Positions 5,717 through 51,451 of a DNA stretch of 64,000 nt are shown here, one piece after another. The first letter of the stretch is position 1. Each line of letters begins with the position of its first letter. The notes below the pieces were generated by a model. It was not told the DNA's origin and searched no databases. It worked only from the letters and a program-made list of their open reading frames with translations. The stretch covers positions 24,591-88,590 of the forward strand of contig CACZAH010000001.1 of the NCBI GenBank assembly GCA_902779035.1. Direction: 5' to 3'. Made by a program: the position numbers and the translations under genes. Source of the DNA: an uncultured Erysipelotrichaceae bacterium (GTDB taxonomy: Bacteria; Bacillota_I; Bacilli_A; RF39; UBA660).

Positions 5717-5803
5717 GCTCGTGTGATGAAATTGGTAGACGTGCGAGACTCAAAATCTCGTGGTAGCGATACCGTATCGGTTCGAGTCCGATCACGAGCA
5801 CCA
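5717..5803 (+). tRNA. tRNA-Leu (anticodon CAA), CCA encoded
   Basis: Acceptor GCTCGTG/CACGAGC, anticodon stem CGAGA/TCTCG with loop CTCAAAA, long variable arm, T-arm GGTTCGAGTCC, 3' ACCA. Length 87 nt. Confidence 0.9.
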
Positions 5804-11966: not shown

Positions 11967-12746
11967 TCATTCGATAATTAATTCCTGACCTATACTTAAC
12001 AAATTACTAGTTAAATTGTTAAGTCTTTTTATTGTATCTACTGTTGTATTAAACTTACTTGCAATTGAATATAAAGTATCTCCTAGTTTTACAATATACT
12101 TATTAATAACAGATTCTTTTAACTTAAGAACTTGCCCTACTCTAAGCACATCACTTGTAAGGTTATTAAGTTCTCTAATTCTATCTATACTTATATTGTT
12201 CTTTCTTGCAATTGAATATAATGTATCTCCTCTAGATACTGTATAAGTATCACTATCAGTATTATTACCGTTTGGAACAATTAAATTAGTTCCTACCTTT
12301 AATAAATTATTTGATAAATTATTCAACCTTTTTATCTCATTAACTGTTGTATCGAATTTTTTAGCAATACTCCATAGAGTATCACCTGATACTACTTTAT
12401 AAGTTCCATCAGCGCTAGGAATACTAGGATTAGTATTTTGATTGTATGGTATATTTAAGTACTCGCTTACAGCTTTAACTACAGCCTCTGCATAATTCTG
12501 CCAGTTATTCTTTAGTTGGTTTACATCATCCAACTTACTATCTAAAAATCCATATTCAACAATTAATGCATCAGTATTACCAGTATTTCTAAGCATAAAA
12601 TAATAGTCTTTACTAGGATCAGATGGTAATCTTCTAACATATGCTTTTCTAATGTTTTGTCCTTCATCCTTTAAATTGTTTAAAATAAGATTAGGTAGTC
12701 TATCTGTTCCACGAAGTGCATATATTACTTCAGCTCCATCACCACC
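11967..12746 (-). pseudogene. 3' part of a split N-acetylmuramoyl-L-alanine amidase (amidase_3) gene plus three LysM repeats
   Basis: The reading frame is open from 12743 (GDGAEVIYALRGTDRLPN...FMLRNTGNTDALIVEYGFLDS) with no start codon of its own. Three LysM repeats follow (YKVVSGDTLWSIAKKF.., YTVSRGDTLYSIARKN.., YIVKLGDTLYSIASKF..). The matching N-terminal half lies at 29872..29609. Confidence 0.85.
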
Positions 12747-12767
12747 AGGCGATAATCAATGTGTAAC
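12747..12767. repeat. Element-side arm of attL (P' half-site)
   Basis: aggcgataatcaatgtgtaac. Its reverse-complement partner is at 29589-29609 (18/21 identical). Confidence 0.75.
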
Positions 12768-13538
12768 GTTTTTATATTCTTCTAAAAGTAACTTTAAATC
12801 TCTTTCTCTTCCAACAACAAAATTTGGACTTGCATTATAAGTTGCTTTAAAAGTTTGTATATTTTCTTCTAAAATTATGTTTTGATCCTCAATTGTAGTA
12901 ATAAATACATCGTCTTGTAATTTAAGAATATTTTTTATTGAATTTTTTTTACAATAACGAACAGCAATATTAGGAGTTAAAATAATCGTAACAATATAAT
13001 AATCTGATGAGTCTTTGTTTAAAACAGAAGTAGCACTGTTTATAACATAGCCATTATCTGTATTATTAAAGACAATACAAATGCCCATTTCCTCTGTAAG
13101 TTTAGTGATTAATCTAGTTCTATCCTCTTCATCAATAAACATATTTTTCAGCGCTTTAATAGGCAAAAAAGCATTAAATTTATCTTTTATTTTTTGCATT
13201 AAAAAATCACTTCTTAACCATTGATATGCTAGGTATTTAGTTAATGTTTCCTTATCTTTCTTTGATAATATAAAATCAGTTTTATTATTAATTCTATGGT
13301 TTTCTAATTTTACAATTACATTGCCTATTTTTTCTTCTGAATTTGATTTTAATTTTTGTTCATTTTTATAAGTATAATATCCTAACTCTCTATTAAATTT
13401 TCTTGCTGTTTCTTGCTTTATTTTCATATTTTCTATATCAATATAACTAATCCAGTATTTTTTATTTTTATCTTGAAATGAAAATCTTTTTAAAATACTT
13501 TCTGCTAAATATATATGTGAATTAATTTTTCTATCCAT
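12756..13538 (-). CDS. Hypothetical protein, possibly DUF4238-like; terminal gene of the element
   Basis: 260 aa with N-terminus SHIYLAESILKRFSF, loosely similar to the DUF4238 HYVPxFYLxxF motif. Its last five codons and stop (NVTH*) lie inside the attL arm. Confidence 0.4.
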   Translation of the reverse strand: MDRKINSHIYLAESILKRFSFQDKNKKYWISYIDIENMKIKQETARKFNRELGYYTYKNEQKLKSNSEEKIGNVIVKLENHRINNKTDFILSKKDKETLTKYLAYQWLRSDFLMQKIKDKFNAFLPIKALKNMFIDEEDRTRLITKLTEEMGICIVFNNTDNGYVINSATSVLNKDSSDYYIVTIILTPNIAVRYCKKNSIKNILKLQDDVFITTIEDQNIILEENIQTFKATYNASPNFVVGRERDLKLLLEEYKNVTH

Positions 13539-13610
13539 TTTTACTTCTTTCTAATATATAAGTAGTTTATCTATTTCTATGTTTACTTTGTTCCAATTGG
13601 AACAAAGCTT

Positions 13611-15200
13611 TTAAATACTATTTAATATACTAAATTTGTAAATTATTTCAATATTTTTATCTTTATCTATAACTATTTTATCAATGATTGTTTGTATTAA
13701 TTCTCTTGTAGGATTTTCGATATCAATTAAAGATTTTATTTTATCTTCGTATTCTTTTAAATTATCAGTCTTGTTTTTTATCACTTTAGTATCAGTTTTT
13801 AATTTACTTATTTCAGTTCTTAATTTACTTAATAAAACTTCTGTATCATTAGCAATTCTTTTATACATTTCATCTGACACTAAACCTTTAAATTTATCTT
13901 CATAAAGCATATCAAGTTTATTCAAATACTCTTTTTCTTTATTCTCTAACACAGTTATTTTTTCTTTTATTTTAGAATCATTCTTTTTCTTATTATTAAT
14001 TTCACTTGCTATATCAGATATATTAACAACATCTAGATATTGTTTGCAAGTTTTTTTAATAACATCTAGTAAGGCCTGCTCTAGTTTATCATAAGGCATA
14101 AAATGTGGATAGCACATTTTTCTTTTTGGATCTCTCGAATATCTATTGCAATTAATAGTCCAATAGTCATGATTCTTTCTATAAGTAATAGTTAATGTAT
14201 TACCACATTCCTTACAATATAATAAATTTTCAAATAGTCTTTTTTCTCTTTTAGTATTATTAGTAATATTAGTTCTTTTCACATTATTTTGTACTTTTTC
14301 AAATATAATTCTATCAATGATTGGTTCATGAGTATTCTTAACAATACTCCAATTTGCTCTAGGTAGTGATTTTTTCTTTTTTGATTTATATGATACTTTA
14401 GTTTGAACACTTTGAACCATATCTCCAACATACATTTGGTTTTTAAGTATCTTTTTTATTGAAGATATTGTCCACATAGGATTATATTTATTATTAGCAT
14501 GAGAATTTTTTCTTTTAAGACTACTTGGTGTTTTAATTTTATTCTCATTTAGATAAGTTGTAATCTCAGATAAGCCTACCCCTTCATATGCCATATCAAA
14601 TATCTTCTTAACAACTGGTGCATATTCAGGATCTGGTATTAAGTGTCCTTTATCCTCTGGATCCCTTAAAAACCCATAACTTGGAGCACTACCAATAAAC
14701 TTACCATTTTTCCTTTTATCATTTAAAACATTTCTGATTTTAACTGAGTTTTGCTTACTATAATAATCATTACAAGCAATTATGAAAGTTGAAGAATCGT
14801 TACTTGCCTGATTTAAAGCATTGTCATAACCTTCTTGCATAGATATAAATCTTATTCCATTTTCAGGAAAGAAAGTTTCTACATAATATCCAGTCATAAC
14901 ATGATCTCTACCTAATCTTGATAAGTCTTTTACTATTACAAGATTGATAACTTTATTTTTGATATCTTCCATCATTTTATTAAATCCTGGTCTATCAAAG
15001 TCAGTGCCAGAAAAACCATCATCAACATATTCTGCTACAAAGATAAAACCTTTTTCTTTTACAAAATTCATTAGCATATTTCTTTGATTAAGGACACTCT
15101 CACTATCAGATTCGTAAGACTTTCCTTCATCTGCTTCAGATAATCTTATATATATTCCTGCTTTGTAAAACTTTGGCGTTTCTATTAAAGTGCTATACAA
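13611..15200 (-). CDS. Large serine recombinase (resolvase domain, recombinase domain, zinc ribbon, coiled coil)
   Basis: 529 aa with AGIYIRLSEADEG (catalytic Ser context), VDDGFSGTDFDRPGF, VIVKDLSRLGRD, a Cys motif CKECGN...C and a C-terminal coiled coil rich in K/E/L. Confidence 0.9.
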   Translation of the reverse strand: MYSTLIETPKFYKAGIYIRLSEADEGKSYESDSESVLNQRNMLMNFVKEKGFIFVAEYVDDGFSGTDFDRPGFNKMMEDIKNKVINLVIVKDLSRLGRDHVMTGYYVETFFPENGIRFISMQEGYDNALNQASNDSSTFIIACNDYYSKQNSVKIRNVLNDKRKNGKFIGSAPSYGFLRDPEDKGHLIPDPEYAPVVKKIFDMAYEGVGLSEITTYLNENKIKTPSSLKRKNSHANNKYNPMWTISSIKKILKNQMYVGDMVQSVQTKVSYKSKKKKSLPRANWSIVKNTHEPIIDRIIFEKVQNNVKRTNITNNTKREKRLFENLLYCKECGNTLTITYRKNHDYWTINCNRYSRDPKRKMCYPHFMPYDKLEQALLDVIKKTCKQYLDVVNISDIASEINNKKKNDSKIKEKITVLENKEKEYLNKLDMLYEDKFKGLVSDEMYKRIANDTEVLLSKLRTEISKLKTDTKVIKNKTDNLKEYEDKIKSLIDIENPTRELIQTIIDKIVIDKDKNIEIIYKFSILNSI

Positions 15201-15280
15201 GTTTTTCTACTCCTTTCTCTTTGTATAACAGATTAAAGCCAATTATATTGTACCATAAAGAACAATATATCGCCATTGTT

Positions 15281-15373
15281 CTACTCATTATCCATCACTC
15301 TTTTTATATAATTAGTTATCAACAAGGTTAAATCAGGAGAATCTTTTTTAAATGTTTCTATTATATTAAACAT
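15281..15373 (-). CDS. 30-aa ORF upstream of the recombinase (speculative directionality-factor candidate)
   Basis: Own translation: MFNIIETFKKDSPDLTLLITNYIKRVMDNE, with a good RBS (agaggtga, 3 nt, ATG). Too short for the supplied ORF track. Confidence 0.2.
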   Translation of the reverse strand: MFNIIETFKKDSPDLTLLITNYIKRVMDNE

Positions 15374-15414
15374 AAGTCACCTCTTTATAGTGTATGACTT
15401 TGTTAAACAATAAA

Positions 15415-15945
15415 TTATTCATCTCCTTTTGTTATTTCATTTATTAATGCTTCTAATTCTTTAAATTCCTCTTCACTCATAGGTTCTGATACTGTAGGTT
15501 TACCATTCCAAGATATGATATTACCTTCATCATCATATTCTATGACAAGACCTATATTTTTTCTTATATTATTATTTTTATTATATTGTTTAAAGTTTTC
15601 TTGATTACTGGCATTAAGATTTTCTTGTATATCTGATATCCTTTTTTTGAATACCTCTGATATAATAATTTTTCTTTTAGAATTATTCTTTTCTTTTTTA
15701 TCATATTTTAAAACAATATAACCATAATTAGATAAACTACTTATACTCTTTGATACTGTTTGCTTACTAACATTAAAACTATCACTAAAAAACTCGTTAG
15801 TAGCCCAGCAATATCCATACTTCTTACAAAGTGACAAAGTGTAAATTAATAGTAATCTTTCAAGTGGTGTTAAATTCTTATCTCCTAATATACTTGTTGG
15901 AAAAACTAATTTAATAAAAGTTTCAATATCTCTTTCCATATTCAT
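15415..15945 (-). CDS. Helix-turn-helix protein (phage/plasmid replication-organiser-like winged helix)
   Basis: 176 aa with LTPLERLLLIYTLSLC...GYCWATNEFFSDSFNVSKQTVSKSISSLSNYGYIV, typical of HTH_36-like proteins. Confidence 0.55.
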   Translation of the reverse strand: MNMERDIETFIKLVFPTSILGDKNLTPLERLLLIYTLSLCKKYGYCWATNEFFSDSFNVSKQTVSKSISSLSNYGYIVLKYDKKEKNNSKRKIIISEVFKKRISDIQENLNASNQENFKQYNKNNNIRKNIGLVIEYDDEGNIISWNGKPTVSEPMSEEEFKELEALINEITKGDE

Positions 15946-16196
15946 TGATATAAGATTACCTAATAGTTTATTCTTGTCAGTCTTTTAGAGCATAAGAAAA
16001 AGAACTGAACAAAGAATAGCACAGCAAATCTAGAAATACTCTAGTACTTCCCTTTAATTTTGGCACTTCATTTTTGTTAAGTTCTTTATAAGAACATTGC
16101 ATAAACTTCCTTTAGTAAAAGTCAACTTTTTTGAGTACACTCGTCGTACCCTAATTTAATTATAGCAAATTTTTACAAAAATTTCTAGTATGTTGC

Positions 16197-16550
16197 TTAA
16201 AAAAGCTTTTTGTTTAATATTGATTTAGGATTGTTATTCGCATACCATTTTAATAAAAATAGCACTAAAATCAATGAACAACTAATTAGTATATATATCC
16301 AATTAGTGATTATAAAAGTTACAAATTTAATCATAATTCCAAAAATAAACCATAATAACACAAATACTATAATTCTTATAGTCCAATGAGTGATGGAACC
16401 TAATTCACCTCTAAAACCAAGTTCTCCAACTATATTAAAGGCTATTATAAAAGCTAATGTGCCAACAATTGCCATAGCTATATAATTATAGAATGGATTA
16501 TCAAACAAAGAAAATGGTGATGTTATTAAATCAAAAATAAATCTTTTCAT
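16197..16550 (-). CDS. Hypothetical integral membrane protein (3-4 TM helices)
   Basis: Start chosen at ATG 16550 (MKRFIFDL...) because of the strong RBS aaaggaggg. Hydrophobic throughout. Confidence 0.55.
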   Translation of the reverse strand: MKRFIFDLITSPFSLFDNPFYNYIAMAIVGTLAFIIAFNIVGELGFRGELGSITHWTIRIIVFVLLWFIFGIMIKFVTFIITNWIYILISCSLILVLFLLKWYANNNPKSILNKKLF

Positions 16551-16648
16551 ATTCCCTCCTTTATATTTTTTTATTACAAAACAAAATAGAGCATATTCCA
16601 TCTTTAAAATGAAATATTGCTCTATTATTAAATATATTTTAACATTTT

Positions 16649-19600
16649 TTACATTTTATTACTAGATATACTAAAAAATTTATCAAAAAAATTCAATAAT
16701 TTATCAATAACTTTATTTTTCTTTTCTTGTCTATCATTAGTAGGTGTAAACATATTCATAGGTGGAAGTATTGTAGATATTTCAGTTCCATTTGTTTCTA
16801 CTCTACCCTGCTCAAAAGCTTTTTGAATAAAGCTATATGTTTCATCTTTATTTAGTTTTTCTTCACTTATTATCTTATCTAGTTCTTCCTTCTTTTTACT
16901 ATTCATAAATGATTCGAAATCAGCATATACATTTGAATTCTGATCTAACGAATCAATAAATGCCATGATTAAGTCCTTCTTATTTCTTAAGTCTGGACTT
17001 GCCATGATTGTTTTTTGAATAGTAACTAGTATCTCTTTATCTTCCATATTAGAATCATGATACTTTTTAACTAATCCTAAAATGTAATCTATATCAACTT
17101 CAATAGATTTAATAAGCTCCATTTCAAATACTACATCATCAGTAACATCTGTCTTCTCTTGCTTAGCCCTATTTCTAAACTCATTATATAGTTCAATATA
17201 AATACTATGATAGTCTTGTTTATCTCTTTCATTAATAAGTTCATCATCTTTGAACTCGTCAAAAGAAGATAAAATATTAGTTACTTTAAGAATAGCACCA
17301 TATAGTTTGATAAACTCTTTCTGATCTGCTTCACTTTGCATTAACTCACCGGGTGCGAATTTAGAAGTTAACTTTTCTACTAATGATTTATATCCCTCAA
17401 ATGTTTTACCATTATCATCCTCATATCCATAGTAGTAATCTTTATATGGTTTTAATAACACAACACCATGAGCTTGCTCATCTCCGAACTTAGCAAGGGC
17501 CTCATTTAATCTGTCTTCAAGATTTCTAAATGAAACTATATTACCATATGTTTTTACACTATTTAATATTCTATTAGTTCTAGAGAAAGCTTGAATTAAT
17601 CCATGCCACTTAAGGTTCTTATCAACCCATAATGTATTTAATGTTTTAGCATCAAATCCAGTTAAGAACATATTAGCAACAATTAATATATCAATCTCTC
17701 TATTCTTCATTCTTAAAGAAACATCTTTATAATAGTTTTGGAAACGTTCTGATGAAGTATCATAACTAGTACCAAACATCTTATTATAATCTTTAATAGC
17801 GTTATCTAAGAATGTACGATCATCATTACTTAATGCTTCAGTTGATTCAGAGTTCTCATCTATCACCCCATCTTCTCCATTAACACCATAAGAGTAAATT
17901 AAAGCTACCTTTAAATCGCTATTATTAAGTACTAACTCCTTCTTAAACTCAGCGTAATACTCCTTAGCCATCTTAATACTAGAAACAGCAAATATAGAGT
18001 TGAATCCATTTACATTCTTCTTAGATTTAATCTCTTCAGTATTTTGTTTCTTAGCAACATCTATTACATTATCTAATGTAGAATAAACATAACTTTCTGA
18101 AGTTTTTGTCTTAGTACTAAAATGATCAATAATATAATTAGTGATTAAATTAATTCTTATTTGATTATCAAATAACTTCTCTTCATCAATGTTATAAACT
18201 TTCTCATCCTTAACATCATCTGATATATCTACTCTACCAACATACTCGTATCTAAATGGTAATACATTCTTATCAGCAATAGCATTAACTATTGTATATG
18301 TATGTAATCTCTCCCCAAAGATTTGCTCAGTTGTTTCAGATACACCTTTAATAGTTCTAGCATTCTCTGGGAATATTGGTGTACCAGTAAACCCAAATAG
18401 ATAATACTTATTAAATTTCTTAATAATAGCTTTGTGCATGTCACCAAATTGAGATCTATGACACTCATCAAAGATAAATACTACATGTTTATTAAATACT
18501 TCACTATTCTCGTTCTTTTTAATAAATTGAGAAAGCTTTTGAATAGTAGTAATAATTATCTTAGCATTAGGATCGTATAATTGTTCCTCTAACACTTTAG
18601 TAGATGTATTAGAGTTTGCTGCACCTTTTTTAAAACGATCATACTCTTTCATTGTTTGATAGTCCAAATCTTTTCTATCTACAACGAATAATACTTTATC
18701 TATAAAGTCTAACTTACTAGCAAGTTGTGATGTCTTAAATGAAGTAAGTGTTTTACCAGAACCAGTTGTATGCCAGATATAACCACCTGACTTAATATCA
18801 CCATAGAACTTGTTATTATAGGCAATAGTTATTCTATTTAATATCTTCTCAGTAGCAACTATTTGATAAGGTCTCATAACAAGTAAATCTTCTTCACTTG
18901 TAAACACACAATACTTGGTTAAAACATTAAGTAAAGTATGTTTAGTTAAGAAGGTTTTAGTAAAATCAATTAAATCAGTTATACCATTATTCTTCTGATC
19001 TGCCCAATAAGAAGTAAATTCAAATGAATTGGACTTCTTTTTCTTTTGGTTATTAATATGAAACTCCCTAGTGGTATTAGAATAATACTTAGTTAAAGTA
19101 CCATTAGATATTACGAATATTTGAACAAAGTTATATAGACCAGATCCAGCCCAGAAGCTATCACGCTGATATCTTTCTATTTGATTAAAAGCTTCTCTAA
19201 GATCTACTCCTCTTTTCTTTAACTCTACATGTACTAAAGGTAAACCATTAACTAGAATAGTAACATCATATCTATTGTCATAATTACCTTCATTATTAAC
19301 ATATTGATTTAACACTTGAACACTATTATTATGAATGTTGTTCTTATCTATTAAATAGATATTTCTCTTAGCACCAGAATCAAGAGTAATCTCTTGTTTA
19401 TAGTCTTCTTGTATTAATCTTGTTTTCTCAATAATATAATCATTCTTATTAGCAATTACTTTAGTAAAAAAAGAATCCCATTCACCATCAGTAAAAGTAT
19501 AATTATTTAACTTTTCTAATTGTTTTCTTAAGTTAAGAATTAATTCATCTTCAGAGTTGATAGTTAATCTCTCATATCCTTGATCAACCAATGTCTTAAT

Positions 19601-19717
19601 TAGTTCTTTTTCAAGAGCATCTTCGCTTTGAAAAGAAGTAGCTACTCTATTTAATCCAGTATACTCTGCTAATACAGTAGAATTATCATTTTCACTTATT
19701 AAACCTATACTACTCAC
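16649..19717 (-). CDS. hsdR: Type I restriction enzyme R subunit
   Basis: 1022 aa (GTG start) with TGSGKT Walker A, FDECHRSQ (DEAD/H box), GFTGTP and QAFSRTNR motifs. Last gene of the R-M operon. Confidence 0.9.
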   Translation of the reverse strand: MSSIGLISENDNSTVLAEYTGLNRVATSFQSEDALEKELIKTLVDQGYERLTINSEDELILNLRKQLEKLNNYTFTDGEWDSFFTKVIANKNDYIIEKTRLIQEDYKQEITLDSGAKRNIYLIDKNNIHNNSVQVLNQYVNNEGNYDNRYDVTILVNGLPLVHVELKKRGVDLREAFNQIERYQRDSFWAGSGLYNFVQIFVISNGTLTKYYSNTTREFHINNQKKKKSNSFEFTSYWADQKNNGITDLIDFTKTFLTKHTLLNVLTKYCVFTSEEDLLVMRPYQIVATEKILNRITIAYNNKFYGDIKSGGYIWHTTGSGKTLTSFKTSQLASKLDFIDKVLFVVDRKDLDYQTMKEYDRFKKGAANSNTSTKVLEEQLYDPNAKIIITTIQKLSQFIKKNENSEVFNKHVVFIFDECHRSQFGDMHKAIIKKFNKYYLFGFTGTPIFPENARTIKGVSETTEQIFGERLHTYTIVNAIADKNVLPFRYEYVGRVDISDDVKDEKVYNIDEEKLFDNQIRINLITNYIIDHFSTKTKTSESYVYSTLDNVIDVAKKQNTEEIKSKKNVNGFNSIFAVSSIKMAKEYYAEFKKELVLNNSDLKVALIYSYGVNGEDGVIDENSESTEALSNDDRTFLDNAIKDYNKMFGTSYDTSSERFQNYYKDVSLRMKNREIDILIVANMFLTGFDAKTLNTLWVDKNLKWHGLIQAFSRTNRILNSVKTYGNIVSFRNLEDRLNEALAKFGDEQAHGVVLLKPYKDYYYGYEDDNGKTFEGYKSLVEKLTSKFAPGELMQSEADQKEFIKLYGAILKVTNILSSFDEFKDDELINERDKQDYHSIYIELYNEFRNRAKQEKTDVTDDVVFEMELIKSIEVDIDYILGLVKKYHDSNMEDKEILVTIQKTIMASPDLRNKKDLIMAFIDSLDQNSNVYADFESFMNSKKKEELDKIISEEKLNKDETYSFIQKAFEQGRVETNGTEISTILPPMNMFTPTNDRQEKKNKVIDKLLNFFDKFFSISSNKM

Positions 19718-21930: not shown

Positions 21931-22564
21931 TAGAATCACCGCCCACATTATAAAAATCAAGATTCTCTCTAGGATTTTGACCATATACACATAAATACTT
22001 ACCTATTAATAAGTACATTCTCTTAAAGCTTGATTTATCAACAGAATCTAAAATCTTTTCTGATAAAGATAATTTATTTATATATTCCTCTGATATCATT
22101 TCCATGCTTTGAATTATTAACTCATTATAATCAAATGTATCATACTCTTTAGATTTTTCGTTCTTAGTATTTATAATCTCTATAATCTTATTTTCTATAT
22201 ATTCATATGATGGTTTACTATTAAAATTCATATTATCATCATATTTAACTGCAACAAAATCAAAAAGAAACTTATACTTATCATCAGTTTTATCTAAAAT
22301 ATACATTTCATGTCTAGATAATACTCCAACATCATTCTTGTCTAACACACTATTGTCCTTAGAATTGAGAATCCTTTCTTTATATCCAGGATAATTAATT
22401 AATCTCGCAACAGATTCATTTAAATAAAACTCTGTAATCTCTACACCAAATGTAACATTATCAGCTTGTAACACAAAATCAGGTTGTTCATGCTCTTTAA
22501 TTGTTATTTTATCAGAATTATAAATCTTCTTTAATATTTGTAGTTCTCTATCTTTCTTACTCAT
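21923..22564 (-). CDS. Unknown protein embedded between hsdM and hsdS (possible PD-(D/E)xK-like core)
   Basis: Start ATG 22564 overlaps the hsdM stop (ATGAGTAA) and its stop overlaps the hsdS start. Sequence EQPDFVLQADNVTFGVEITEF is reminiscent of a nuclease PD...E core (inference only). Confidence 0.65.
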   Translation of the reverse strand: MSKKDRELQILKKIYNSDKITIKEHEQPDFVLQADNVTFGVEITEFYLNESVARLINYPGYKERILNSKDNSVLDKNDVGVLSRHEMYILDKTDDKYKFLFDFVAVKYDDNMNFNSKPSYEYIENKIIEIINTKNEKSKEYDTFDYNELIIQSMEMISEEYINKLSLSEKILDSVDKSSFKRMYLLIGKYLCVYGQNPRENLDFYNVGGDSNE

Positions 22565-24122
22565 GATAATCAACCTCTAATTCTTTGATTATCGCCTCTA
22601 GTTCTTCCCTAATCTTTTGTTGTCTTGGTACTACTTGGGATAGTTTTTCATTAACCGCTTTAATATCAATAGTAGTATCTTCTCCATTAGTCTTTAAGTA
22701 TGAATTAACAGATATATTATAATCATTATCTTTAACTTCTTCATATGCAGCTAAATAAGATTTACCTTCTACACTTTTTCTATCTTTTAATAGAGAAACA
22801 ATACTCTCTATATTTTCATCAGATAACTTATTCTTATTAGTTGTTCTAACACATTCATCAGTAGCATCTACAAATAAGATATTGTTATCAGTCTTATTCT
22901 TCTTTAATACTAAAATACATGTTGCAATAGAAGTACCAAAGAATAAATCACTAGGTAATTGAATAACTGTATCAACAAAGTTATTATCAATCATATATTG
23001 TCTTATCTTTTGCTCTGCTCCACCTCTATATAAAACTCCTGGGAACTCAACTATTGCTGCAGTACCTTTAGAAGATAGCCAAGATAACATATGCATAGTA
23101 AATGCTAAGTCAGCTTTAGATGTAGGAGCTAAAACACCAGCAGGTGCAAATCTCTCATCATTAATAAGAATTGGGTTCTCTTTACCAGCCCATTTAATAG
23201 AATAAGGTGGATTAGAAACTATAGCATCAAATGGTTCATCATCCCAATGCGCAGGATGTATTAAAGTATCACCACGTTCAATACTAAAGTTATTATAGTT
23301 AATATTATGTAAGAACATATTAATTCTAGCTAAGTTATATGTTGTTAAGTTAATTTCTTGTCCAAAGAAACCTTGCTTAACATTCTCTTTTCCTAATATC
23401 TTAGCAAACTTAAGTAATAGACCTCCAGATCCACAAGCAGGATCATACACTTTATTAACAGAAGTCTTATTCATTATAACTATTCTAGCAAGTAATTCTC
23501 CTACTTCTTGAGGCGTGAAGAACTCACCACCAGATTTACCTGCAGAAGAGGCATACATAGTCATTAAGAACTCATATGCATCACCAAACAAATCTATTGT
23601 TCCTTCATTATAATCACCAAAATTTAAATCACCTATAGCATTAAGTAACTTAACTAACTTCTCATTTCTCTCATCTACAGTATTACCTAACTTATTATCT
23701 ATTGTAAAATCATCAAATAAACCTTTAACATCATCTTCTGAAGCAGTGCCTCTAGCAGAAGCTTCAATATTGTTAAATACATTAGATATAACTACATTCA
23801 AGTTCTCATTCTTATCAGCACCTTTTCTAATATTACAGAATAGTTCACTAGGTAAAATGAAGAAACCTTTCTCCTCAAGTATTTGAGATTTACCAAGTAA
23901 TGCTTCTTCATCAGATATATTTCTATATTCAAAATCAGCTATACCAGCTTTTCTTTGATTTTCATTAACATAGTTTTCTATATTTTCAGATATAAATCTA
24001 TAAAATAACAATCCTAATACGTATTGTTTAAAATCCCATCCATCAACAGAACCTCTAAGTTCATTTGCTATCTTCCAAATAGTCTTATGAAGTTCTTCTC
24101 TTTCTCGTTCCTTATTATTCAT
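22557..24122 (-). CDS. hsdM: Type I restriction enzyme M subunit (N6-adenine methyltransferase)
   Basis: 521 aa with GEFFTPQEV, VYDPACGSGGLL (SAM motif) and VSNPPYSIKW (NPPY catalytic motif). Confidence 0.9.
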   Translation of the reverse strand: MNNKEREREELHKTIWKIANELRGSVDGWDFKQYVLGLLFYRFISENIENYVNENQRKAGIADFEYRNISDEEALLGKSQILEEKGFFILPSELFCNIRKGADKNENLNVVISNVFNNIEASARGTASEDDVKGLFDDFTIDNKLGNTVDERNEKLVKLLNAIGDLNFGDYNEGTIDLFGDAYEFLMTMYASSAGKSGGEFFTPQEVGELLARIVIMNKTSVNKVYDPACGSGGLLLKFAKILGKENVKQGFFGQEINLTTYNLARINMFLHNINYNNFSIERGDTLIHPAHWDDEPFDAIVSNPPYSIKWAGKENPILINDERFAPAGVLAPTSKADLAFTMHMLSWLSSKGTAAIVEFPGVLYRGGAEQKIRQYMIDNNFVDTVIQLPSDLFFGTSIATCILVLKKNKTDNNILFVDATDECVRTTNKNKLSDENIESIVSLLKDRKSVEGKSYLAAYEEVKDNDYNISVNSYLKTNGEDTTIDIKAVNEKLSQVVPRQQKIREELEAIIKELEVDYHE

Positions 24123-24140
24123 TACATCTTACCTTCCTTA

Positions 24141-24980
24141 CTAATCAAATAATTCTTTAACAATTAAATCTTGTGAATGTAAATTATTATTTTTACCTAA
24201 TAATAAATTTTCATAAAATTTAACTAAATAATTACTATCTTCTTTTATATTCAAATAATTATTAAAATAATTACTTCTAACTAAAGCATTTCTAAAATAA
24301 ATTGATTTATCTTTAAATAAAGTATTATCTACTTCATAACCTAAACTAATTAAATATTTTTCTATAAATAATGCTGTAGTCCTAGTATTACCTTCCCTAA
24401 ATGGATGAACTTGCCATATACTAGATGAAAATTTAGTAATATTATTTATTACTTCTACAACATTCATATCTTTATAATTCTTTTCTTTTTCTAAAGATAT
24501 ATCATATTCTAATGATTCTTTTAATGTCTTACAATCACCATAAGCAACTGAATCATTATTAAGTATTTTCTCATGTTTAGAAAAATCTATATTTCTAAAC
24601 TCTCCTGCAAATTCATAAACATCTTGAAATAAATATTTATGAACATATTTTAAATAATCAACAGATAATTTAAAATTATCAATTTGTAATAATTCAACAA
24701 TTCTTGTAGATACAAAATCACATTCTAATTCATTATGATTTAATTCTTGTTTTTTATCTTTTTCAATATAATATTCTCTCAACTCTTCTTCTACTTGCTT
24801 AATAGTTAAATTACCACTAACATTTTCTTCTAATAATTTTTCCAAATATTTAGAAGGTTTTAAATTATCTACTTCTTGAAGACCTATAGCCATATCCCAC
24901 TCTAGTTGTTTTACATATCCTTCTGGTTTAGTTTCTTCTGTATATTCAACATTACTTGAATCTAATTCTTTTTCACTCAT
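24141..24980 (-). CDS. Fic/DOC (Fido) family protein
   Basis: 279 aa with the Fic motif HPFREGNTRTTALF. 18 nt upstream of hsdM. Confidence 0.85.
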   Translation of the reverse strand: MSEKELDSSNVEYTEETKPEGYVKQLEWDMAIGLQEVDNLKPSKYLEKLLEENVSGNLTIKQVEEELREYYIEKDKKQELNHNELECDFVSTRIVELLQIDNFKLSVDYLKYVHKYLFQDVYEFAGEFRNIDFSKHEKILNNDSVAYGDCKTLKESLEYDISLEKEKNYKDMNVVEVINNITKFSSSIWQVHPFREGNTRTTALFIEKYLISLGYEVDNTLFKDKSIYFRNALVRSNYFNNYLNIKEDSNYLVKFYENLLLGKNNNLHSQDLIVKELFD

Positions 24981-24992
24981 TTAATTAACCTC

Positions 24993-25595
24993 CTATCTCA
25001 CTGCATAATCTACTAAAGTTCTAACTTTTTCATATATATTAAATATTTTAGAATACACTAGTAATTTATCTATATCTTTATCACTGCTATTAAAATAATC
25101 ATGTAATATATTATTTTGTAATTCTAAATCAAAATCATCACTTTTTAACATATCACAAACACATCTTTCAGCATTATATACTTTAATTGGATTATTAAAC
25201 ATATTGTTAATTTCAATAATACCAATATTATAATATTTATCTGCTACATAATGTACTTTATAATTGCTTAATACCCTTTTCTTACTACTAACAGTTATTT
25301 CTATTTCTTCTGGTAATTCTTTAATTAAACCTAACATACTTAATGCTGTCTTATATGAATATATGGCATCAGGATATCTTTTTTGAAAAACATACTCATC
25401 ATCAACTAATATATTGCTATCAACATATAAACCATGTGAAACTTTATTTATTAATCCATTATCAACATATTTTTTTATCAATGGTTTACTAATATTTAGT
25501 TTTAAAAAATCTGATGTAGATATGTATCCATGATTAGCATCTAAAAACTGTTTTATTTTATCTTCATTAGTCATAGAATCACCATTTACTTTCAT
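24993..25595 (-). CDS. AbiEi-like (type IV TA antitoxin-type) winged-helix regulator
   Basis: 200 aa with GYISTSDFLKLNISKPLIKKYVDNGLINKVSHGLYV, which resembles the AbiEi_4 N-terminal domain. First gene of the operon, 12 nt upstream of fic. Confidence 0.55.
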   Translation of the reverse strand: MKVNGDSMTNEDKIKQFLDANHGYISTSDFLKLNISKPLIKKYVDNGLINKVSHGLYVDSNILVDDEYVFQKRYPDAIYSYKTALSMLGLIKELPEEIEITVSSKKRVLSNYKVHYVADKYYNIGIIEINNMFNNPIKVYNAERCVCDMLKSDDFDLELQNNILHDYFNSSDKDIDKLLVYSKIFNIYEKVRTLVDYAVR

Positions 25596-25822
25596 AACAA
25601 TATTATATCATTTTATTATATTTAAGTAAACCAATTTTGCACAATAAAAATAATAATTTTTTAGTAACTGTCGGAGACTATTTTTATGGGTTTTAGGGAT
25701 AATCACTAACAAGCATTAACGGGTGTGTCAACACCATGCTTGATTTATTGTACAAGACTGGTAAGTTACCTCTAGTAAGGGGGTGATTTTTTAATATTTT
25801 CTTAACATTTTTTTATAAAAAA

Positions 25823-25852
25823 TAGCACTAATTTTTTATAAAATTAGTGCTA
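25823..25852. terminator. Bidirectional hairpin terminator downstream of gajB
   Basis: tagcactaatttt / aaaattagtgcta, a 13-bp perfect stem flanked by A/T runs. Confidence 0.7.
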
Positions 25853-25863
25853 AAATTTAATGA

Positions 25864-27429
25864 TTATACAATAAGATTATTAATAAAATTTGAGACAACT
25901 TCATTATTTTTTGACAAAATATATACATTATTTTTTGCTCTAGTTATTGCAACAAAAAGCTTATTTTTGAATTCTTCATTTATGACATTATATTGATTAT
26001 CTAAAACTATAATTACATTATCACTTTCTAATCCTTTTGAAGTATGTATAGTCATTATTCTATTTTCCTTTTCGACAGTATAGTAATTATATTTATATTT
26101 CTCATCTTCTAATTTATTGATAATTTCAAAAATAGTTTCATCTGATATAATTATACCTAATTTTAAAAAGCTTTCTTTTAAAAATTCATCTAATTGAATT
26201 TTTCGTCTTAAATTAAAATCTCTTTGTTTTATTTTTGTATTACAACTTAACAAAATTGATTCAATTTTTTCATAAGGATATTTATATTTATCAATAACAT
26301 TATCATAATTTAAGTAATATCTTAGTAGTTCATCTATTATATCTGAATTTTCATAATAGTCATTATATTTTTTGTTATCCAAATCTAATTTTTTTGTGTA
26401 TATTATATCATAATCAGTTTTATATAGTTCATATAACTCTTGTGCTGTATTATTGCTCTCGGTTAATATAAAAGATGAACCAGTTAATCCATTTAAAAAT
26501 TTTGAATTTACTTCAGATATAAGATTTACATGTGATTTATCTTTATAACTTTTAACAAGACTTGAATCATATATTTTATTTGCATAATAAATTATGCTAG
26601 GGTGACAACGTATACTTACATTTATTTTATATTCACTATATCCAAAATTAGTTAATTTTCTAAATAGTTCTGGTCTAGCTCCTCTAAATTGATAAATCGA
26701 CTGATTAGCATCACCAACCATAATGATGTTAACATTAGTGTTATCTTTTAAAGCTTTGAAAAATAAATGTTGAAAAAAATTTAAATCCTGTGCTTCATCT
26801 ATATATATAGTTGTATATTTATTATTAAACCACTCTATAAAAACTTTCATTTTTACTATATATGTTGCAAATAAATATGTTGGAAAAGAAACCTCATATT
26901 GACATTCTTTTAATTTTTTTATCCACTCCGAATAATATTTATTACCAATTTCCTTTAAAGATTGATTCTTATCATAATATCTTGTCAACTCATTAATTGT
27001 AAGATTCTTGCCATTATTCTTTAAGATAAATTCATCCTGAATTTTAACATATTCTTCAGGAAAAAATATTTTTTTATCAATTATAACTTGTTCAGAAAAT
27101 AAATTAGCATTAATAAGAGCCCTATTAACAAATTTACATACAGTATCTTTAACAAATGAATCAATGGTTCCAATATAACTATTATTTATTTCTAGTTTTT
27201 TGTTAATTCGTGATTTCAATTCTTCAGAAGCCTCACGAGTAAAAGAGCAAGCTACTACACCTTGATATTCTTCTATTTCATTAAGCTCTTTTTCAATTCT
27301 TTTTACAATAGTATAAGTTTTTCCTGAGCCCGGGCATGCTGATACAAAAATATATTTTTCACTAGAGCTTATAATCTTTTCTTGTTCAAAATCTAAGATT
27401 TCTTTTAATTCATCTGATATATTATTCAT
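25864..27429 (-). CDS. gajB: Gabija GajB-like UvrD/Rep-family helicase
   Basis: 521 aa with CPGSGKTYT (Walker A), IYIDEAQDLN (DExQD) and TIHTSKGLESDNV. Overlaps gajA by 8 nt. Confidence 0.8.
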   Translation of the reverse strand: MNNISDELKEILDFEQEKIISSSEKYIFVSACPGSGKTYTIVKRIEKELNEIEEYQGVVACSFTREASEELKSRINKKLEINNSYIGTIDSFVKDTVCKFVNRALINANLFSEQVIIDKKIFFPEEYVKIQDEFILKNNGKNLTINELTRYYDKNQSLKEIGNKYYSEWIKKLKECQYEVSFPTYLFATYIVKMKVFIEWFNNKYTTIYIDEAQDLNFFQHLFFKALKDNTNVNIIMVGDANQSIYQFRGARPELFRKLTNFGYSEYKINVSIRCHPSIIYYANKIYDSSLVKSYKDKSHVNLISEVNSKFLNGLTGSSFILTESNNTAQELYELYKTDYDIIYTKKLDLDNKKYNDYYENSDIIDELLRYYLNYDNVIDKYKYPYEKIESILLSCNTKIKQRDFNLRRKIQLDEFLKESFLKLGIIISDETIFEIINKLEDEKYKYNYYTVEKENRIMTIHTSKGLESDNVIIVLDNQYNVINEEFKNKLFVAITRAKNNVYILSKNNEVVSNFINNLIV

Positions 27430-29125
27430 ATAAAAAACTCACCAATACTGATTTCATATTACTAGAACAAATTTTAATATCCATATTATATTCGTTAATA
27501 AATGTATGCAAATTTTTTAATTTAGCTTGCTTTAAAAATGATATTGCTTCATCAGATATTTTATTTTTAGGATTCATATTTAAATAATCGATTAGATCTT
27601 GCTCAAAACCATCATTATGTTTTGAAAATAGTATGTTATTCTTAAATAATAATTTACAAATATCATCCATTTTATCTTCAACACTTTGAATTTTAGTTTC
27701 TCTATCTTTAAATCTAAATTCTAATTTTTCTACACCCAACAATTTTTTTAATTCTTCTTGAGCCTCACTAGAAATATACTCAACACATCTTTCTAAACCG
27801 GCATATCTATATTCATCAATACGTGGAACTTTAAAAATATCATTGTCAGTCTTTATATAGACTTTTATACCTAAATTTTCTAATAATTTTTTTATGGTTT
27901 TAAATGCAATACCATTTACGGCATAAATACCAAATCTATATTTATTAATTTTCTCCAAAAAACTATTATCTTTTGTCATTAGTAAACTATAAAAATATTT
28001 TTCGGAATCTCCCTCAATCAATAATACGTTATCATAATATAACATTTCAGCGACTTCAACATTAATCAAATATCCGAATTTTTTGAAATCTTCATTATTT
28101 ATATTATCAAATCTATTTATAATTCTATCGCCTGTTAATCTATTGCAAGATATTTTAATGATTTGATTTACTTTTTCAAAATCAATCGTATAAGGAGAAT
28201 GAGTAGTGATTATAAGTTGACTTGGATTCATTTGTAATAAAGCACTAATATAGATCTTTTGCAATAAAACATATAAATGATTTTCTGGTTCCTCTATAAT
28301 ATAGATTTTTTGTTTATCATTTTTATATATTTTGGATTTTAAAATCATAGAAAAGATTTTGCTTTTTCCGTCACCAATATTATTAAATTCATTATCATTT
28401 GCGTCATAAGTAGCAACATTTAAAGATTTATAAATATTTTCTTCTTTTATATTTGGAATAACTCTAAAATTCAAATCTTCAAGCAACTCTTTAAATTCAC
28501 CTTTTTCATTTAATTCTTGTTGAATTTGATCTATTATTTTCTCATCTTGTATTGTTTCATTTAGATTATTTATTTCTTTTAATATATTTTCACTAAAATA
28601 TATCCCATTTTCTTTGTTATCAGTTTCTTTAAATTTAAAGAAATCTTTTTTTGAATTTTCTATATCATATACTGGGTTTATGTATACAATTGATAATACT
28701 TTATCTAGCTGAGTTTGTGTATTTATTCTTACTTCTTCAAAATCAATATTAGGATCACCATATATTAATGTATCTTCATATTCTAAAGTATCTTCATTGT
28801 ATGTAGAAGTTAACTTAGCTATCATGTATTTCTTTCCTTCGTTATCAATATGAATATAATTACCTATAATAGCAGATTGTTCATTAGTTAAGTCATCTGC
28901 TGTTAGCTTTATTTCAATTTCAATATTATCTTTATTTGAATTTGTTGAGTCAGCAGCAACTAATGGAATACGTCTTTTATTATAATCTAAAACTTTTAAA
29001 ATTGCAGAGCAAATATTCGTTTTTCCACTATCATTTTGACCAATAAGTATTGAAACCTTCTCAACCGTATCAATTTCTATATTCAAACCTCTATAATTCT
29101 TAACTTTTAATCCACATATCAACAT
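27422..29125 (-). CDS. gajA: Gabija GajA-like OLD-family ATPase plus TOPRIM nuclease
   Basis: Start ATG 29125 after GGAGG. Motifs GQNDSGKTN (Walker A), IIEEPENHL (Walker B / D-loop region), HSP and LLIEGDSEKYF (Toprim). Confidence 0.8.
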   Translation of the reverse strand: MLICGLKVKNYRGLNIEIDTVEKVSILIGQNDSGKTNICSAILKVLDYNKRRIPLVAADSTNSNKDNIEIEIKLTADDLTNEQSAIIGNYIHIDNEGKKYMIAKLTSTYNEDTLEYEDTLIYGDPNIDFEEVRINTQTQLDKVLSIVYINPVYDIENSKKDFFKFKETDNKENGIYFSENILKEINNLNETIQDEKIIDQIQQELNEKGEFKELLEDLNFRVIPNIKEENIYKSLNVATYDANDNEFNNIGDGKSKIFSMILKSKIYKNDKQKIYIIEEPENHLYVLLQKIYISALLQMNPSQLIITTHSPYTIDFEKVNQIIKISCNRLTGDRIINRFDNINNEDFKKFGYLINVEVAEMLYYDNVLLIEGDSEKYFYSLLMTKDNSFLEKINKYRFGIYAVNGIAFKTIKKLLENLGIKVYIKTDNDIFKVPRIDEYRYAGLERCVEYISSEAQEELKKLLGVEKLEFRFKDRETKIQSVEDKMDDICKLLFKNNILFSKHNDGFEQDLIDYLNMNPKNKISDEAISFLKQAKLKNLHTFINEYNMDIKICSSNMKSVLVSFLYE

Positions 29126-29197
29126 CTTAACAACCTCCAAAAATATATAATTATTATACCATACAAAAGCACTATCATCAGTGATAGTGCTAAAATT

Positions 29198-29548
29198 TTA
29201 ATAATATTTTTCTAATTTTAATGGATTTCTACCAGTAATTTTTAGATTATATCTTATGTTTAATATCTTTTCTATAGATGGAATTATTATATCAATATTG
29301 CATCTACAATTAAAAATATCTACTGCAGAATTGATATGATTATATAATTTACTATCATCTAAGCAACTTCTTGAATAACTATTTGCAATATAAAATGCTA
29401 CTGCATCTGGTATTACATATCTAATCATGTACTCTTCAAAATTGTCATAGAAAGGCAAATACTTTTTTTGAAATTCTTCATCAGATATATTTCCTTCATC
29501 CATTAATTCTTTTTCATTTGTGTAACTCATATTATAACTAATCTCCAT
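29198..29548 (-). CDS. Hypothetical 116-aa protein, terminal gene at the attR end of the element; has a paralogue at 58447-58722
   Basis: ORF with FYDNFEEYMIRYVIPDAVAFYIANSY...AVDIFN, about one-third identical by eye to the 79-aa ORF at 58483..58722. Confidence 0.55.
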   Translation of the reverse strand: MEISYNMSYTNEKELMDEGNISDEEFQKKYLPFYDNFEEYMIRYVIPDAVAFYIANSYSRSCLDDSKLYNHINSAVDIFNCRCNIDIIIPSIEKILNIRYNLKITGRNPLKLEKYY

Positions 29549-29575
29549 TTCTTACTATGTTTTTGGCTTTAATCG

Positions 29576-29872
29576 TTATACATATTTTGTTACACATCGA
29601 CTGTCGCCTCCACCAGCATTTATATGATTAGAAATTACTAAAACATCTTTAGAATTACCATATGCATTAAGTACACGTCTTACTCTTTCTGAAGGATCAA
29701 GTGTTTCATCACTATCTCTAGTAAGAGTTACGTCCGCACCTAAGCCTCTTAATCTATCTGCTATATATGTTGCAATCTTTAAAGTTAATTCCTTTTCAAT
29801 TATCCCATTTCCAATAGCACCAGAGTCAGTTCCTCCATGTCCTGCATCTATAACAATTTTTTTATAGTTCAT
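29576..29872 (-). pseudogene. 5' part of the split amidase_3 gene (native codons 29872..29612, then read-through into the element)
   Basis: MNYKKIVIDAGHGGTDSGAIGNG...VLVISNHINAGG continues into the attR arm as GDSRCVTKYV*. RBS aggtga lies 6 nt before ATG 29872. Confidence 0.85.
29589..29609. repeat. Element-side arm of attR (P half-site)
   Basis: gttacacatcgactgtcgcct, the reverse complement of the attL arm at 18/21 positions. Confidence 0.75.
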
Positions 29873-29919
29873 TATAATCACCTATATTATCATATGAAAA
29901 AAGCACAAATACGTGCTTA
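29837..29919. repeat. 83-bp direct repeat, copy A (terminator, promoter/RBS and first 12 codons of the amidase)
   Basis: Identical to 31317-31399 except for 3 mismatches (29866, 29890, 29910). Confidence 0.95.
29897..29918 (-). terminator. Hairpin terminator (aagcac/gtgctt plus T-run) overlapping the stop of the AAA ATPase gene
   Basis: The minus strand reads aagcac-gtattt-gtgctt-tttt. The same structure recurs at 31377-31398. Confidence 0.5.
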
Positions 29920-31125: not shown

Positions 31126-31316
31126 AGTAATTCCTCCTAAAGACATTATACATCAGTTTTGTTTAATAGTCAATTTTGTCTTTTGCACAAGACTAAATTA
31201 CAATTTATGACATTTTTGTCTTAAGGCAAAGAACAATGCTGAACAAAAAAAATATTTAATTTTGTATTCGCATGTATTCATAGCCACTCAACATTTTGGG
31301 TCAAACTGATTTATCT

Positions 31317-31399
31317 ATGTCCTGCATCTATAACAATTTTTTTATCGTTCATTATAATCACCTATATTAGCATATGAAAAAAGCACAAAAACGTGCTTA
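31317..31399. repeat. 83-bp direct repeat, copy B (carries a dead amidase start: MNDKKIVIDAGHR*)
   Basis: See copy A. Downstream of position 31317 the amidase frame stops immediately. Confidence 0.95.
31377..31398 (-). terminator. Hairpin terminator downstream of the SEC-C-motif gene (copy of 29897-29918)
   Basis: aagcac / gtgctt stem plus T-run on the minus strand, 70 nt after the stop at 31469. Confidence 0.5.
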
Positions 31400-33034: not shown

Positions 33035-33043
33035 AATCTACTC

Positions 33044-40918: not shown

Positions 40919-41009
40919 ATAACCACAATCCTAACTGCGTTTATATAATAACATTTATTTAATTATATGTAAATATACCAAAAGAAAAAAACACATTACT
41001 GTGTTTAAA

Positions 41010-41486: not shown

Positions 41487-41567
41487 ATAACCACCTGTTT
41501 CCTATATAAATTATACCATTTTTTTGCAAAAAATGTAAGTAAAACAGATGATTTTATACAATATTAA

Positions 41568-48460: not shown

Positions 48461-48468
48461 GAGGTTAT

Positions 48469-51441: not shown

Positions 51442-51451
51442 AATTTCACCT

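Follow-up and report, generated by a model that had tools for sequence, protein, structure and literature searches.

The window examined in this work is a 64,000-nt stretch of contig CACZAH010000001.1 (positions 24,591 to 88,590 of the forward strand, assembly GCA_902779035.1) from an uncultured Erysipelotrichaceae bacterium. It carries a 16,865-bp element at window positions 12747-29611, which interrupts a gene coding for an Amidase_3 domain followed by three LysM repeats. The two parts of the gene and the features at their junctions with the element are the following:

11967-12744, minus strand: 3' part of the amidase gene, from Gly89 (GDGAEVIY...), with the catalytic VEYGF motif, three LysM repeats and the stop; no start codon of its own
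12745-12746: crossover core at the C-half junction, CC on the plus strand and GG in gene orientation
12747-12767: inner, attP-derived arm AGGCGATAATCAATGTGTAAC, inverted repeat of 29589-29609 (18/21)
29576-29872, minus strand: 5' part of the amidase gene, Met1-Gly88, with the DAGHGG and NHINAGG zinc-ligand motifs; ten codons into the element, then a stop
29589-29609: inner, attP-derived arm GTTACACATCGACTGTCGCCT, partner of the arm at 12747-12767
29610-29611: crossover core at the N-half junction, CC

Both halves of the gene are open and complete. The N-half reads MNYKK...NHINAGGGDSRCVTKYV* and the frame of the C-half ...LSPG GDGAEVIY...ELIIE, in agreement with the original prediction, made from the letters of this stretch, in which a minus-strand open reading frame (ORF) from 29872 (MNYKKIVIDAGHGG...VISNHINAGG) runs into ten foreign codons (GDSRCVTKYV*), and a frame ending at 11967 (GDGAEVIYALRG...VEYGFLD... 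plus three LysM repeats) lacks its own start; this frame comes after a stop. The junction strings quoted there occur once each, at 12735-12767 and 29589-29621, and the 21-nt inner arms match at 18 of 21 positions around the CC, the similarity ending past 21 nt. The chance of such a match is about 1e-7 by our own estimate, taking a per-base match of ~30% in AT-rich DNA. Strictly, the sequence common to both junctions is CCA (3 nt), the CC being the symmetric centre of the rebuilt attP.

When the 16,865 bp are deleted in silico, the outer flanks join as ...CATATAAATGCTGGTGGTGGTGATGGAGCTGAAG... (attB) and give, as had been proposed, an in-frame ORF of 346 aa that aligns end-to-end with Pfam models, having Amidase_3 at residues 6-181 (model positions 1-173 of 174) and then three LysM repeats. 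The junction of the excised circle (attP) is predicted to read ...CATCGACTGTCGCCTCCAGGCGATAATCAATG.... With a 2-bp core, imperfect inverted inner arms and outer arms that rebuild attB, the site has the att architecture of an element moved by a large serine recombinase (LSR), and a 529-aa LSR gene, also described at the outset, ends 865 nt from the junction. Since the junction regions are reproduced at 100% identity by two independent contigs of other assemblies (L030 and L120), an assembly artefact is excluded. We consider it almost certain that an LSR recombined an attP, with imperfect inverted arms of ~21 nt and a GG core, with an attB at the N-A-G|G-G-D codons of the amidase gene. The "codon precision" attributed to the insertion holds as far as the split is exact, but this is automatic in conservative site-specific recombination and is no evidence of regulation. 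Regarding composition, GC is 22-29% along the whole island in a scan against the flanks; therefore, the island is not compositionally distinct from them.

By the insertion, the zinc-ligand motifs are left in the 5' half, and both the catalytic Glu and the LysM repeats in the 3' half; judged by these motifs, neither half can be active by itself. A protein search with the rebuilt ORF found uninterrupted full-length homologues, two of them 99% identical (P0001 and P0002) and many at 82-94%, and all intact alleles, at 82-99% identity, read ...SNHINAGGGDGAEVIYALRG... over the predicted join (NHINAGGGDGAEVIY). The gene is also contiguous in seven species-level GTDB genomes, with NH(I/L)NAGGG(D/E)GAE at this place. 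The original prediction had proposed to give up the insertion if no relative carried a contiguous ..NAGGGDGAEV.. or if homologues naturally ended or started at these points; contiguous alleles up to 99% identical exist, and the split is not a natural end. Because the Amidase_3 domain begins at residue 6 of the rebuilt protein, the amidase has no export signal, and the best named NCBIfam match of its catalytic domain is the spore protein CwlD, under its cut-off. A prophage endolysin was also considered for this enzyme and rejected, as no phage-like genes lie beside it in the inspected loci and orthologues are found in 16 species.

Recombinase, adjoining small ORF and cargo

The recombination module is situated near the C-half junction and consists of these features:

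13611-15200, minus strand: LSR of 529 aa, with Resolvase (PF00239), Recombinase (PF07508) and Zn_ribbon_recom (PF13408) domains, all above cut-offs
15201-15280, minus strand: upstream region of the LSR, with a putative sigmaA-like extended -10 (TGGTACAAT)
15281-15373, minus strand: conserved 30-aa ORF MFNIIETFKKDSPDLTLLITNYIKRVMDNE, candidate recombination directionality factor (RDF), with homologues directly upstream of every clade LSR examined
15388-15396, minus strand: CATACACTA, a -10-like box of sigmaE/sigmaK type, 23 nt upstream of the 30-aa ORF

In an alignment of seven clade members (A1), residues R19, S21, R95 and R98 of the LSR, within YIRLS...SRLGRD, are invariant. A catalytically dead recombinase, named at the outset as a finding that would speak against the element, is thus not what the sequence suggests, as R19/S21 and the SRLGRD motif are kept. 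No relatives of the LSR were found in IMG/VR, which therefore gives no support for a phage origin.

An LSR recombines attL with attR only with the help of an RDF. The 30-aa ORF at 15281-15373, which the original prediction had singled out, is indeed conserved: directly upstream of each LSR of the clade that was examined, at 23 loci with 18 distinct versions, lies a micro-ORF of 25-37 aa (60 aa in L054 and L055), which mostly has a good ribosome-binding site (RBS) and is present also in the compact elements L022 and L044. Its core is (F/L)-x-(D/E)-(L/I)-I-x-x-Y-(L/I/V), with the Tyr near-invariant. A CATA-type -10 usually precedes it, as a CATANNNT box stands 23-28 nt upstream of the micro-ORF ATG in 13 of the 18 distinct versions, compared to ~5% expected (binomial P ~7e-14, the versions not being fully independent), and a sigmaA-like extended -10, such as TGGTACAAT or TGGTATAAT, is typical between the micro-ORF and the LSR. 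The micro-ORF is then a candidate RDF of this recombinase. A 116-aa ORF at the other end of the element, where it could be read through from the amidase promoter, was tried as the primary RDF and rejected, being missing in L022 and L044, where the micro-ORF is present.

All listed element ORFs of at least 90 aa are on the minus strand, co-directional with the amidase. In gene orientation their order is the 116-aa ORF with its hairpin, GajA, GajB, AbiEi, Fic, HsdM/HsdS/HsdR, a 134-aa hydrophobic ORF, the HTH_36/DnaD_N-like gene, the 30-aa ORF, the LSR and a 260-aa ORF. Besides the recombination module, the element holds:

12756-13538, minus strand: 260-aa ORF on the junction side of the LSR; no Pfam, NCBIfam or PADLOC match
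15415-15945, minus strand: HTH_36/DnaD_N-like protein of 176 aa, belonging to the core module that some of the elements conserve
16197-16601, minus strand: 134-aa hydrophobic ORF; no Pfam, NCBIfam or PADLOC match
16649-24122, minus strand: Type I restriction-modification (R-M) operon, with HsdR at 16649-19717, HsdS at 20848-21990 and HsdM at 22557-24122
24141-24980, minus strand: Fic-domain protein (PF02661; PADLOC candidate PDC-S72)
24993-25595, minus strand: AbiEi-type antitoxin/regulator (182 bits)
25864-27429, minus strand: GajB (PADLOC, 229 bits, full length)
27422-29140, minus strand: GajA (PADLOC, 222 bits, full length)
29191-29168, minus strand: intrinsic-terminator-like hairpin, directly after the 116-aa ORF
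29198-29548, minus strand: 116-aa ORF, first element gene downstream of the amidase 5' half; no NCBIfam or PADLOC match

The defence cargo proposed before, namely Type I R-M, AbiEi with Fic, and Gabija, is borne out by the domain and PADLOC scans: HsdR, HsdS and HsdM stand in one operon, and GajA and GajB, in Gabija an ATPase with an OLD/TOPRIM nuclease and a UvrD-like helicase, are adjacent, with their genes overlapping at 27422-27429. The partner of AbiEi has to be corrected to the Fic protein; it is not the nucleotidyltransferase toxin AbiEii, and the genes do not form an AbiE (AbiEi/AbiEii) pair. No phage structural or conjugation domains were found in the Pfam, NCBIfam and PADLOC scans of the element (PHROGs was not run). 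Two further ORFs, at 19710-20870 (386 aa) and 21923-22573 (216 aa), interleave and overlap with hsdR/hsdS/hsdM and have no Pfam, NCBIfam or PADLOC match. The 260-aa ORF occurs among the fetched loci only in L030, a second copy of the same element. Homologues of the 116-aa ORF are found at the same element end in L042 and L057 (56-59% identity) and, more distant, in L049 and L001-L003; they are absent from L022 and L044. This ORF may share a transcript started at the CATA promoter of the amidase, described below.

Related islands in other genomes

The element had been described as a single case; it is instead one member of a horizontally mobile family. Among the 16 GTDB species representatives with an orthologue of the amidase, the gene is intact in seven, split at this site in eight and split at a second site in one (L011). 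The eight species split at this site in the genome scan are L015-L022, in which the amidase match starts at exactly the same nucleotide. The contigs of L016 and L018-L022 extend past the junction by ~2-3 kb on its upstream side and carry there an LSR with 52-76% identity to that of the window; in L015 and L017 no LSR was found within the 0.9-1.6 kb of upstream flank. A metagenome scan with the LSR alignment gave 80 loci, where LSRs at least 48% identical to that of the window were all flanked by amidase halves if the contig was long enough, and those at most 43% identical never were. All 21 C-side junctions share the same GG, with a variable arm followed by GG-TGG(C/T)GA(T/A)GG. As these comparisons indicate, the element belongs to a clade of LSR islands whose attB is located in the conserved N-A-G|G-G-D codons of an Amidase_3-LysM gene without signal peptide, in uncultured, very AT-rich Bacilli of gut and rumen.

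Four further loci contain both junctions, with elements of 5,528 bp (L022), 7,484 bp (L053), 9,951 bp (L055) and 14,815 bp (L057), all having the GG core at both junctions and attP arms that are inverted repeats at 15-18 of 24 positions. In L044, only ~235 bp separate the N-side junction from the micro-ORF and the LSR, which suggests a near-minimal element. The cargo elsewhere is also mostly defence-like, including Type I R-M with Fic, a Type IIG MmeI-like enzyme, an AAA ATPase with a subtilase, a PLD-helicase with DUF3427, and AbiEi-Fic; L022 is an exception, carrying two hybrid histidine kinases. Regarding the latter, this compact 5.5-kb element (L022:2334-8233) encodes kinases of 604 and 613 aa whose translations, unaligned, look like paralogues of a chromosomal 609-aa kinase immediately upstream of the amidase, and either the cargo or the adjacent host gene may be a copy of the other.

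The divergence of the LSRs is not correlated with that of the amidases (Spearman 0.03). Thus, L016 and L050 have LSRs 88% identical in host amidases of 52% identity, and the amidases of L050 and L051 are 99% identical with LSRs of 59%. This lack of correlation leads to the conclusion that the islands move horizontally and replace each other at one attB. Near-identical arms (...TATCATTACTTACATCGGCA-GG) were also observed at L001:2450-2545 and in L053 (reverse strand, about 5156-5210), in amidases only ~57% identical; in this element type the LSR is opposite in direction to the amidase and stands near the N-side junction. By its arms, this pair clearly reflects the transfer of one element between species.

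The same gene is also targeted elsewhere. At L011:2747-4400, an LSR only 30% identical to that of the window ends 50 bp upstream of ...|HGGSDPG, which indicates an amidase split at a second site, DAGH|GG, within the first zinc-ligand motif, by a different LSR lineage; this locus is the single second-site case in the GTDB tally given above. The 4.3 kb available upstream did not contain the 5' fragment of this amidase. The window itself has a direct repeat of 83 bp (80/83), at 29837-29919 and 31317-31399, which takes in the terminator and the CATA promoter along with the amidase's first 12 codons and ends at ...DAGH; its upstream copy encodes just MNDKKIVIDAGHR*. The repeats flank a 1.48-kb module whose gene, at 29917-31146, codes for an AAA_14/DUF4143 ATPase (PADLOC candidate PDC-S01, 484 bits). 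This module looks like a second, integrase-less insertion at the amidase 5' end that brought its own replacement 5' end. By these insertions, the amidase gene is a multi-site insertion hotspot.

Predicted excision in the mother cell and its alternatives

SigmaE and sigmaK share a common -10 and differ in their -35 (ATA vs AC) in both Clostridioides difficile and Bacillus subtilis (PMC3789822), and sigmaK-dependent amidases have been proposed to act in mother-cell lysis, namely CwlC and CwlH, and CD1898 and CD2184 (PMC3789822; PMC517825). The following features precede the amidase gene of the window:

29888-29914, minus strand: AC-N16-CATATGATA, sigmaK-like promoter that precedes the amidase ATG by 24 nt and lies between the terminator hairpin and the RBS
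29918-29901: terminator hairpin, just ahead of the sigmaK-like amidase promoter

The amidase alone, among 46 ORFs of the window, has a CATANNNTA within 60 nt upstream, there as the full AC-N16-CATANNNTA. In nine of 12 orthologues, the box AC-N16-CATAnnnTA is located at the same place (background 0.00066 per nt), in intergenic DNA that is otherwise unalignable among them. From this phylogenetic footprint, which is not an expression measurement, we infer that the amidase promoter is of sigmaK type. The orthologue of L044 (8953-9633) has an extra N-terminal extension of ~130 aa ahead of Amidase_3, peptidoglycan-binding-like by eye, and no CATA box in the 70 nt before its script-picked start, which falls inside the longer ORF (own start at 8953).

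In addition, genes associated with sporulation are found in the window. SpoIIID (PF12116, 103.6 bits) is encoded at 62988-63233, between MreB/Mbl (61915-62931) and an M23 protein (63300-63950) for which SpoIIQ is by a wide margin the best NCBIfam match (155 bits over the full length, under the 250-bit cut-off). The arrangement spoIIQ-spoIIID-mbl is that of endospore formers. Moreover, the gene of a 141-aa protein with a CotJB domain (88.5 bits; 48035-48460) runs into the beginning of that of a CotJC-like Mn catalase (48439-49044).

These observations are compatible with the following model, which we somewhat favour. The LSR would be made constitutively from its sigmaA-type promoter, being by itself unable to recombine attL with attR; it would thus leave the island in place both in vegetative cells and in the forespore. 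Only in the mother cell would the ~30-aa RDF be expressed, from its sigmaE/sigmaK-type (CATA) promoter, and the island would be excised as a circle, rebuilding the amidase gene. The rebuilt amidase, a late mother-cell lysin similar to CwlC, would be transcribed from the sigmaK-type promoter and lyse the mother cell wall from within, while the forespore chromosome would retain the island, its cargo being inherited at no cost to spore release. The coupling of defence loss to hydrolase gain, put forward originally, would then matter only in a mother cell about to lyse. As the element sits precisely in the amidase and related islands are found at the same nucleotide in many species, it is probably a further case of the elements known from Bacillus and Clostridium to be cut out during sporulation. 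The initial comparison with skin and SPbeta is therefore retained for the structure (LSR, attL/attR, split amidase, defence cargo), and its developmental part is only circumstantially strengthened. Tentatively, and with a little less confidence than doubt, the clade may be viewed as exchangeable LSR-borne defence cassettes for which a gene of a mother-cell lysin would serve as a cost-free "germline safe harbour", cut out only there, and on which two unrelated LSR lineages would have converged.

Several points weigh against excision in the mother cell. To our knowledge, sporulation has never been observed in these uncultured hosts. The sporulation-associated genes are only five, all in one 64-kb window, the other fetched loci having yielded none. 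The promoter calls are based on a short 9-nt -10 motif in DNA of 25% GC, and since a calibration of the CATA-type motif on the upstream regions of the host spoIIID and cotJ gave no clear match, they are uncalibrated; no clear -35 (ATA or AC) precedes the micro-ORF, in DNA too AT-rich to judge. The exact rebuilt 346-aa protein is absent from a collection of 15 billion proteins, by exact look-up; on record instead is the truncated 98-aa N-half, in a cluster of 23 sequences, most of them likewise truncated. The nearest intact alleles differ at 5-6 residues and so come from other strains, no attB of the same strain having been found. The attP junction has nine matches in IMG/VR, all by chance, in phage contigs of 55-69% GC, and none in the metagenome collection; both consist of assembled contigs, where absence is uninformative. 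With 25-37 aa, the micro-ORF is also much smaller than the small RDFs cited, CD1234 of 53 aa and the yin RDF of 72 aa (PMC10747680). The intact halves were considered as proof of selection for reconstitution, and this was rejected: the uncoupled divergence of LSR and amidase speaks for recent insertions, and with such fast horizontal turnover intact halves are no evidence of selection.

The comparison with CwlC belongs to the same balance. CwlC is an Amidase_3 enzyme without a signal peptide, with SPOR repeats at its C-terminus and an expression that depends on sigmaK and GerE. The amidase shares with CwlC and CwlH of B. subtilis (PMC517825), which are encoded by late mother-cell lysis genes, the Amidase_3 domain, the lack of a signal peptide, the C-terminal wall-binding repeats and, as inferred here, a late mother-cell promoter. 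However, the likeness to CwlC noted originally is that of a generic Amidase_3, and its repeats belong to the LysM type where CwlC has SPOR; the enzyme is not CwlC, and the relation would be one of functional analogy only.

An ordinary integrative defence island is the alternative that survives best, and we regard it as doubtful rather than improbable. The conserved target would then lie in a dispensable or redundant amidase that is kept inactive, excision would be rare and serve transfer, with no link to sporulation, and the CATA boxes would be sigmaA variants or chance. Horizontal mobility and replacement are what such an island would display, as seen by the different LSR elements within one species (L050/L051) and by the near-identical arms in amidases of 57% identity (L001/L053); interrupted and intact alleles are interleaved in the phylogeny, the searched collections hold no evidence of attP or attB, and an attB that encodes an invariant catalytic-site motif is an obvious stable target. 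Left unexplained are the same non-sigmaA CATA-type -10 at both the target gene and the small ORF across distant lineages, the choice of the same gene by a second, unrelated LSR lineage, and the tolerance of its loss in nine of 16 species, three features that fit mother-cell genes as safe harbours (PMC5595907, PMC4191935).

It is improbable that the element is a reversible vegetative switch ("active lysogeny"), in which excision and re-integration driven by stress or phage would toggle an autolysin for cell separation or lysis without any role in sporulation. LSR and RDF systems can work in both directions, LysM repeats are typical of vegetative autolysins, and the yin element of Clostridium botulinum was detected excised at all time points (PMC10747680). 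Yet the amidase has no export signal, so that it could act outside vegetative cells only with a holin or through cell lysis, the promoters carry motifs of mother-cell type, and there is no evident control of replication or re-integration. A chimera of the assembly has practically no chance of being correct, nor has a pair of decayed pseudogenes with a fortuitous repeat; they are refuted by the independent contigs L030 and L120, by 21 other loci with the same junction, and by two halves that are open and complete.

The known sporulation gene-intervening elements are skin (sigK), SPbeta (spsM), vfbin (spoVFB), vrin (spoVR), gin (gerE) and yin (yabG) (PMC5595907, PMC4191935, PMC10747680); an amidase is the target in none of the cases known from these papers, nor in the openly accessible literature searched. 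The closest analogue is gin, from Bacillus cereus ATCC 10987, as both are non-phage islands with an R-M system; gin lies in gerE, a small or late mother-cell gene, and is excised by the LSR GirC with the small factor GirX, as was shown experimentally; it measures 28.6 kb, carries three serine recombinases and was described from a single strain (PMC5595907). The island described here, in contrast, has one LSR, an amidase as the target, relatives over many species with exchangeable cargo, and an excision that is predicted from sequence.

The SPbeta element is 134 kb long. In B. subtilis, it is likewise an LSR element in a late mother-cell gene, where precise excision by SprA/SprB rebuilds spsM, with the RDF under sporulation sigma factors; it differs in being an active prophage that is also excised for lytic growth (PMC4191935, PMC5499854), whereas no phage genes were seen in the island described here, whose LSR has no IMG/VR relatives. 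In skinCd of C. difficile, located in sigK, the LSR CD1231 is expressed constitutively from a sigmaA promoter and the RDF CD1234 is under sigmaE and SpoIIID, restricting excision to the mother cell (PMC5025042). This layout resembles the one inferred here, in which the LSR would have a sigmaA promoter and a mother-cell sigma factor would control the small RDF, but skinCd is prophage-like, targets a sigma factor gene and has a 53-aa RDF that is not likewise adjacent to the LSR, compared to 25-37 aa immediately upstream of it in the present clade. The elements yin, vfbin and vrin (PMC10747680) are also LSR elements in sporulation-associated genes, with inverted-repeat att sites around a short core; they are prophage-like and have other target genes. 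What sets the present element apart from the known ones is thus its amidase target, the uncultured host clade, a family-wide horizontal spread with exchangeable defence cargo, the convergence of two LSR lineages on one gene and a very small candidate RDF.

Should the mother-cell model hold, the amidase would be the seventh target gene for programmed excision, after sigK, spsM, spoVFB, spoVR, gerE and yabG, and the first cell-wall lysin among them, extending the phenomenon to an uncultured lineage of Bacilli in which about half of the sampled species are carriers, and turning it from a strain curiosity into a system with family-wide horizontal exchange. It would also tie the biology of defence islands to the split between germline and soma, as an insertion into a gene needed only in the mother cell costs nothing if it is excised there. 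For genome engineering with serine integrases, the clade is of interest for its many diverged LSRs for the same short attB and its candidate 30-aa directionality factor; under the same proviso, it would offer natural LSR/attP variants by the dozen, all for a single attB core and each accompanied by a micro-RDF. Even as an ordinary island, the site is a well-defined integration hotspot, useful for finding defence cargo in metagenomes.

Chromosomal surroundings

Upstream of the amidase, a defence-rich flank (31469-42515) begins with a SEC-C-motif protein at 31469-33034 and ends with an Abi_2 protein at 41568-42515. Between them stands a complete Wadjet operon, composed of JetD (33044-34264), a JetC-like protein (34257-38288), JetB/DUF2398 (38281-39480) and JetA/DUF2397 (39458-40918). 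For a 409-aa flank protein, the look-up of contigs encoding it returned no record.

Further defence genes follow at 49351-60946, from a GmrSD-type restriction enzyme (49351-51441) to an endonuclease of the MvaI/BcnI family (60203-60946), and include a second Type I R-M system with HsdR at 51452-54463, an HsdS-like protein at 55063-56784 and HsdM at 56768-58276. Seven tRNA genes (Pro, Arg, Phe, Asp, Met, Ser and Leu) at 61064-61756 adjoin the mbl-spoIIID region, and a lone tRNA-Leu(CAA) at 5717-5803 adjoins a BacA-like gene, as seen by synteny with L001.

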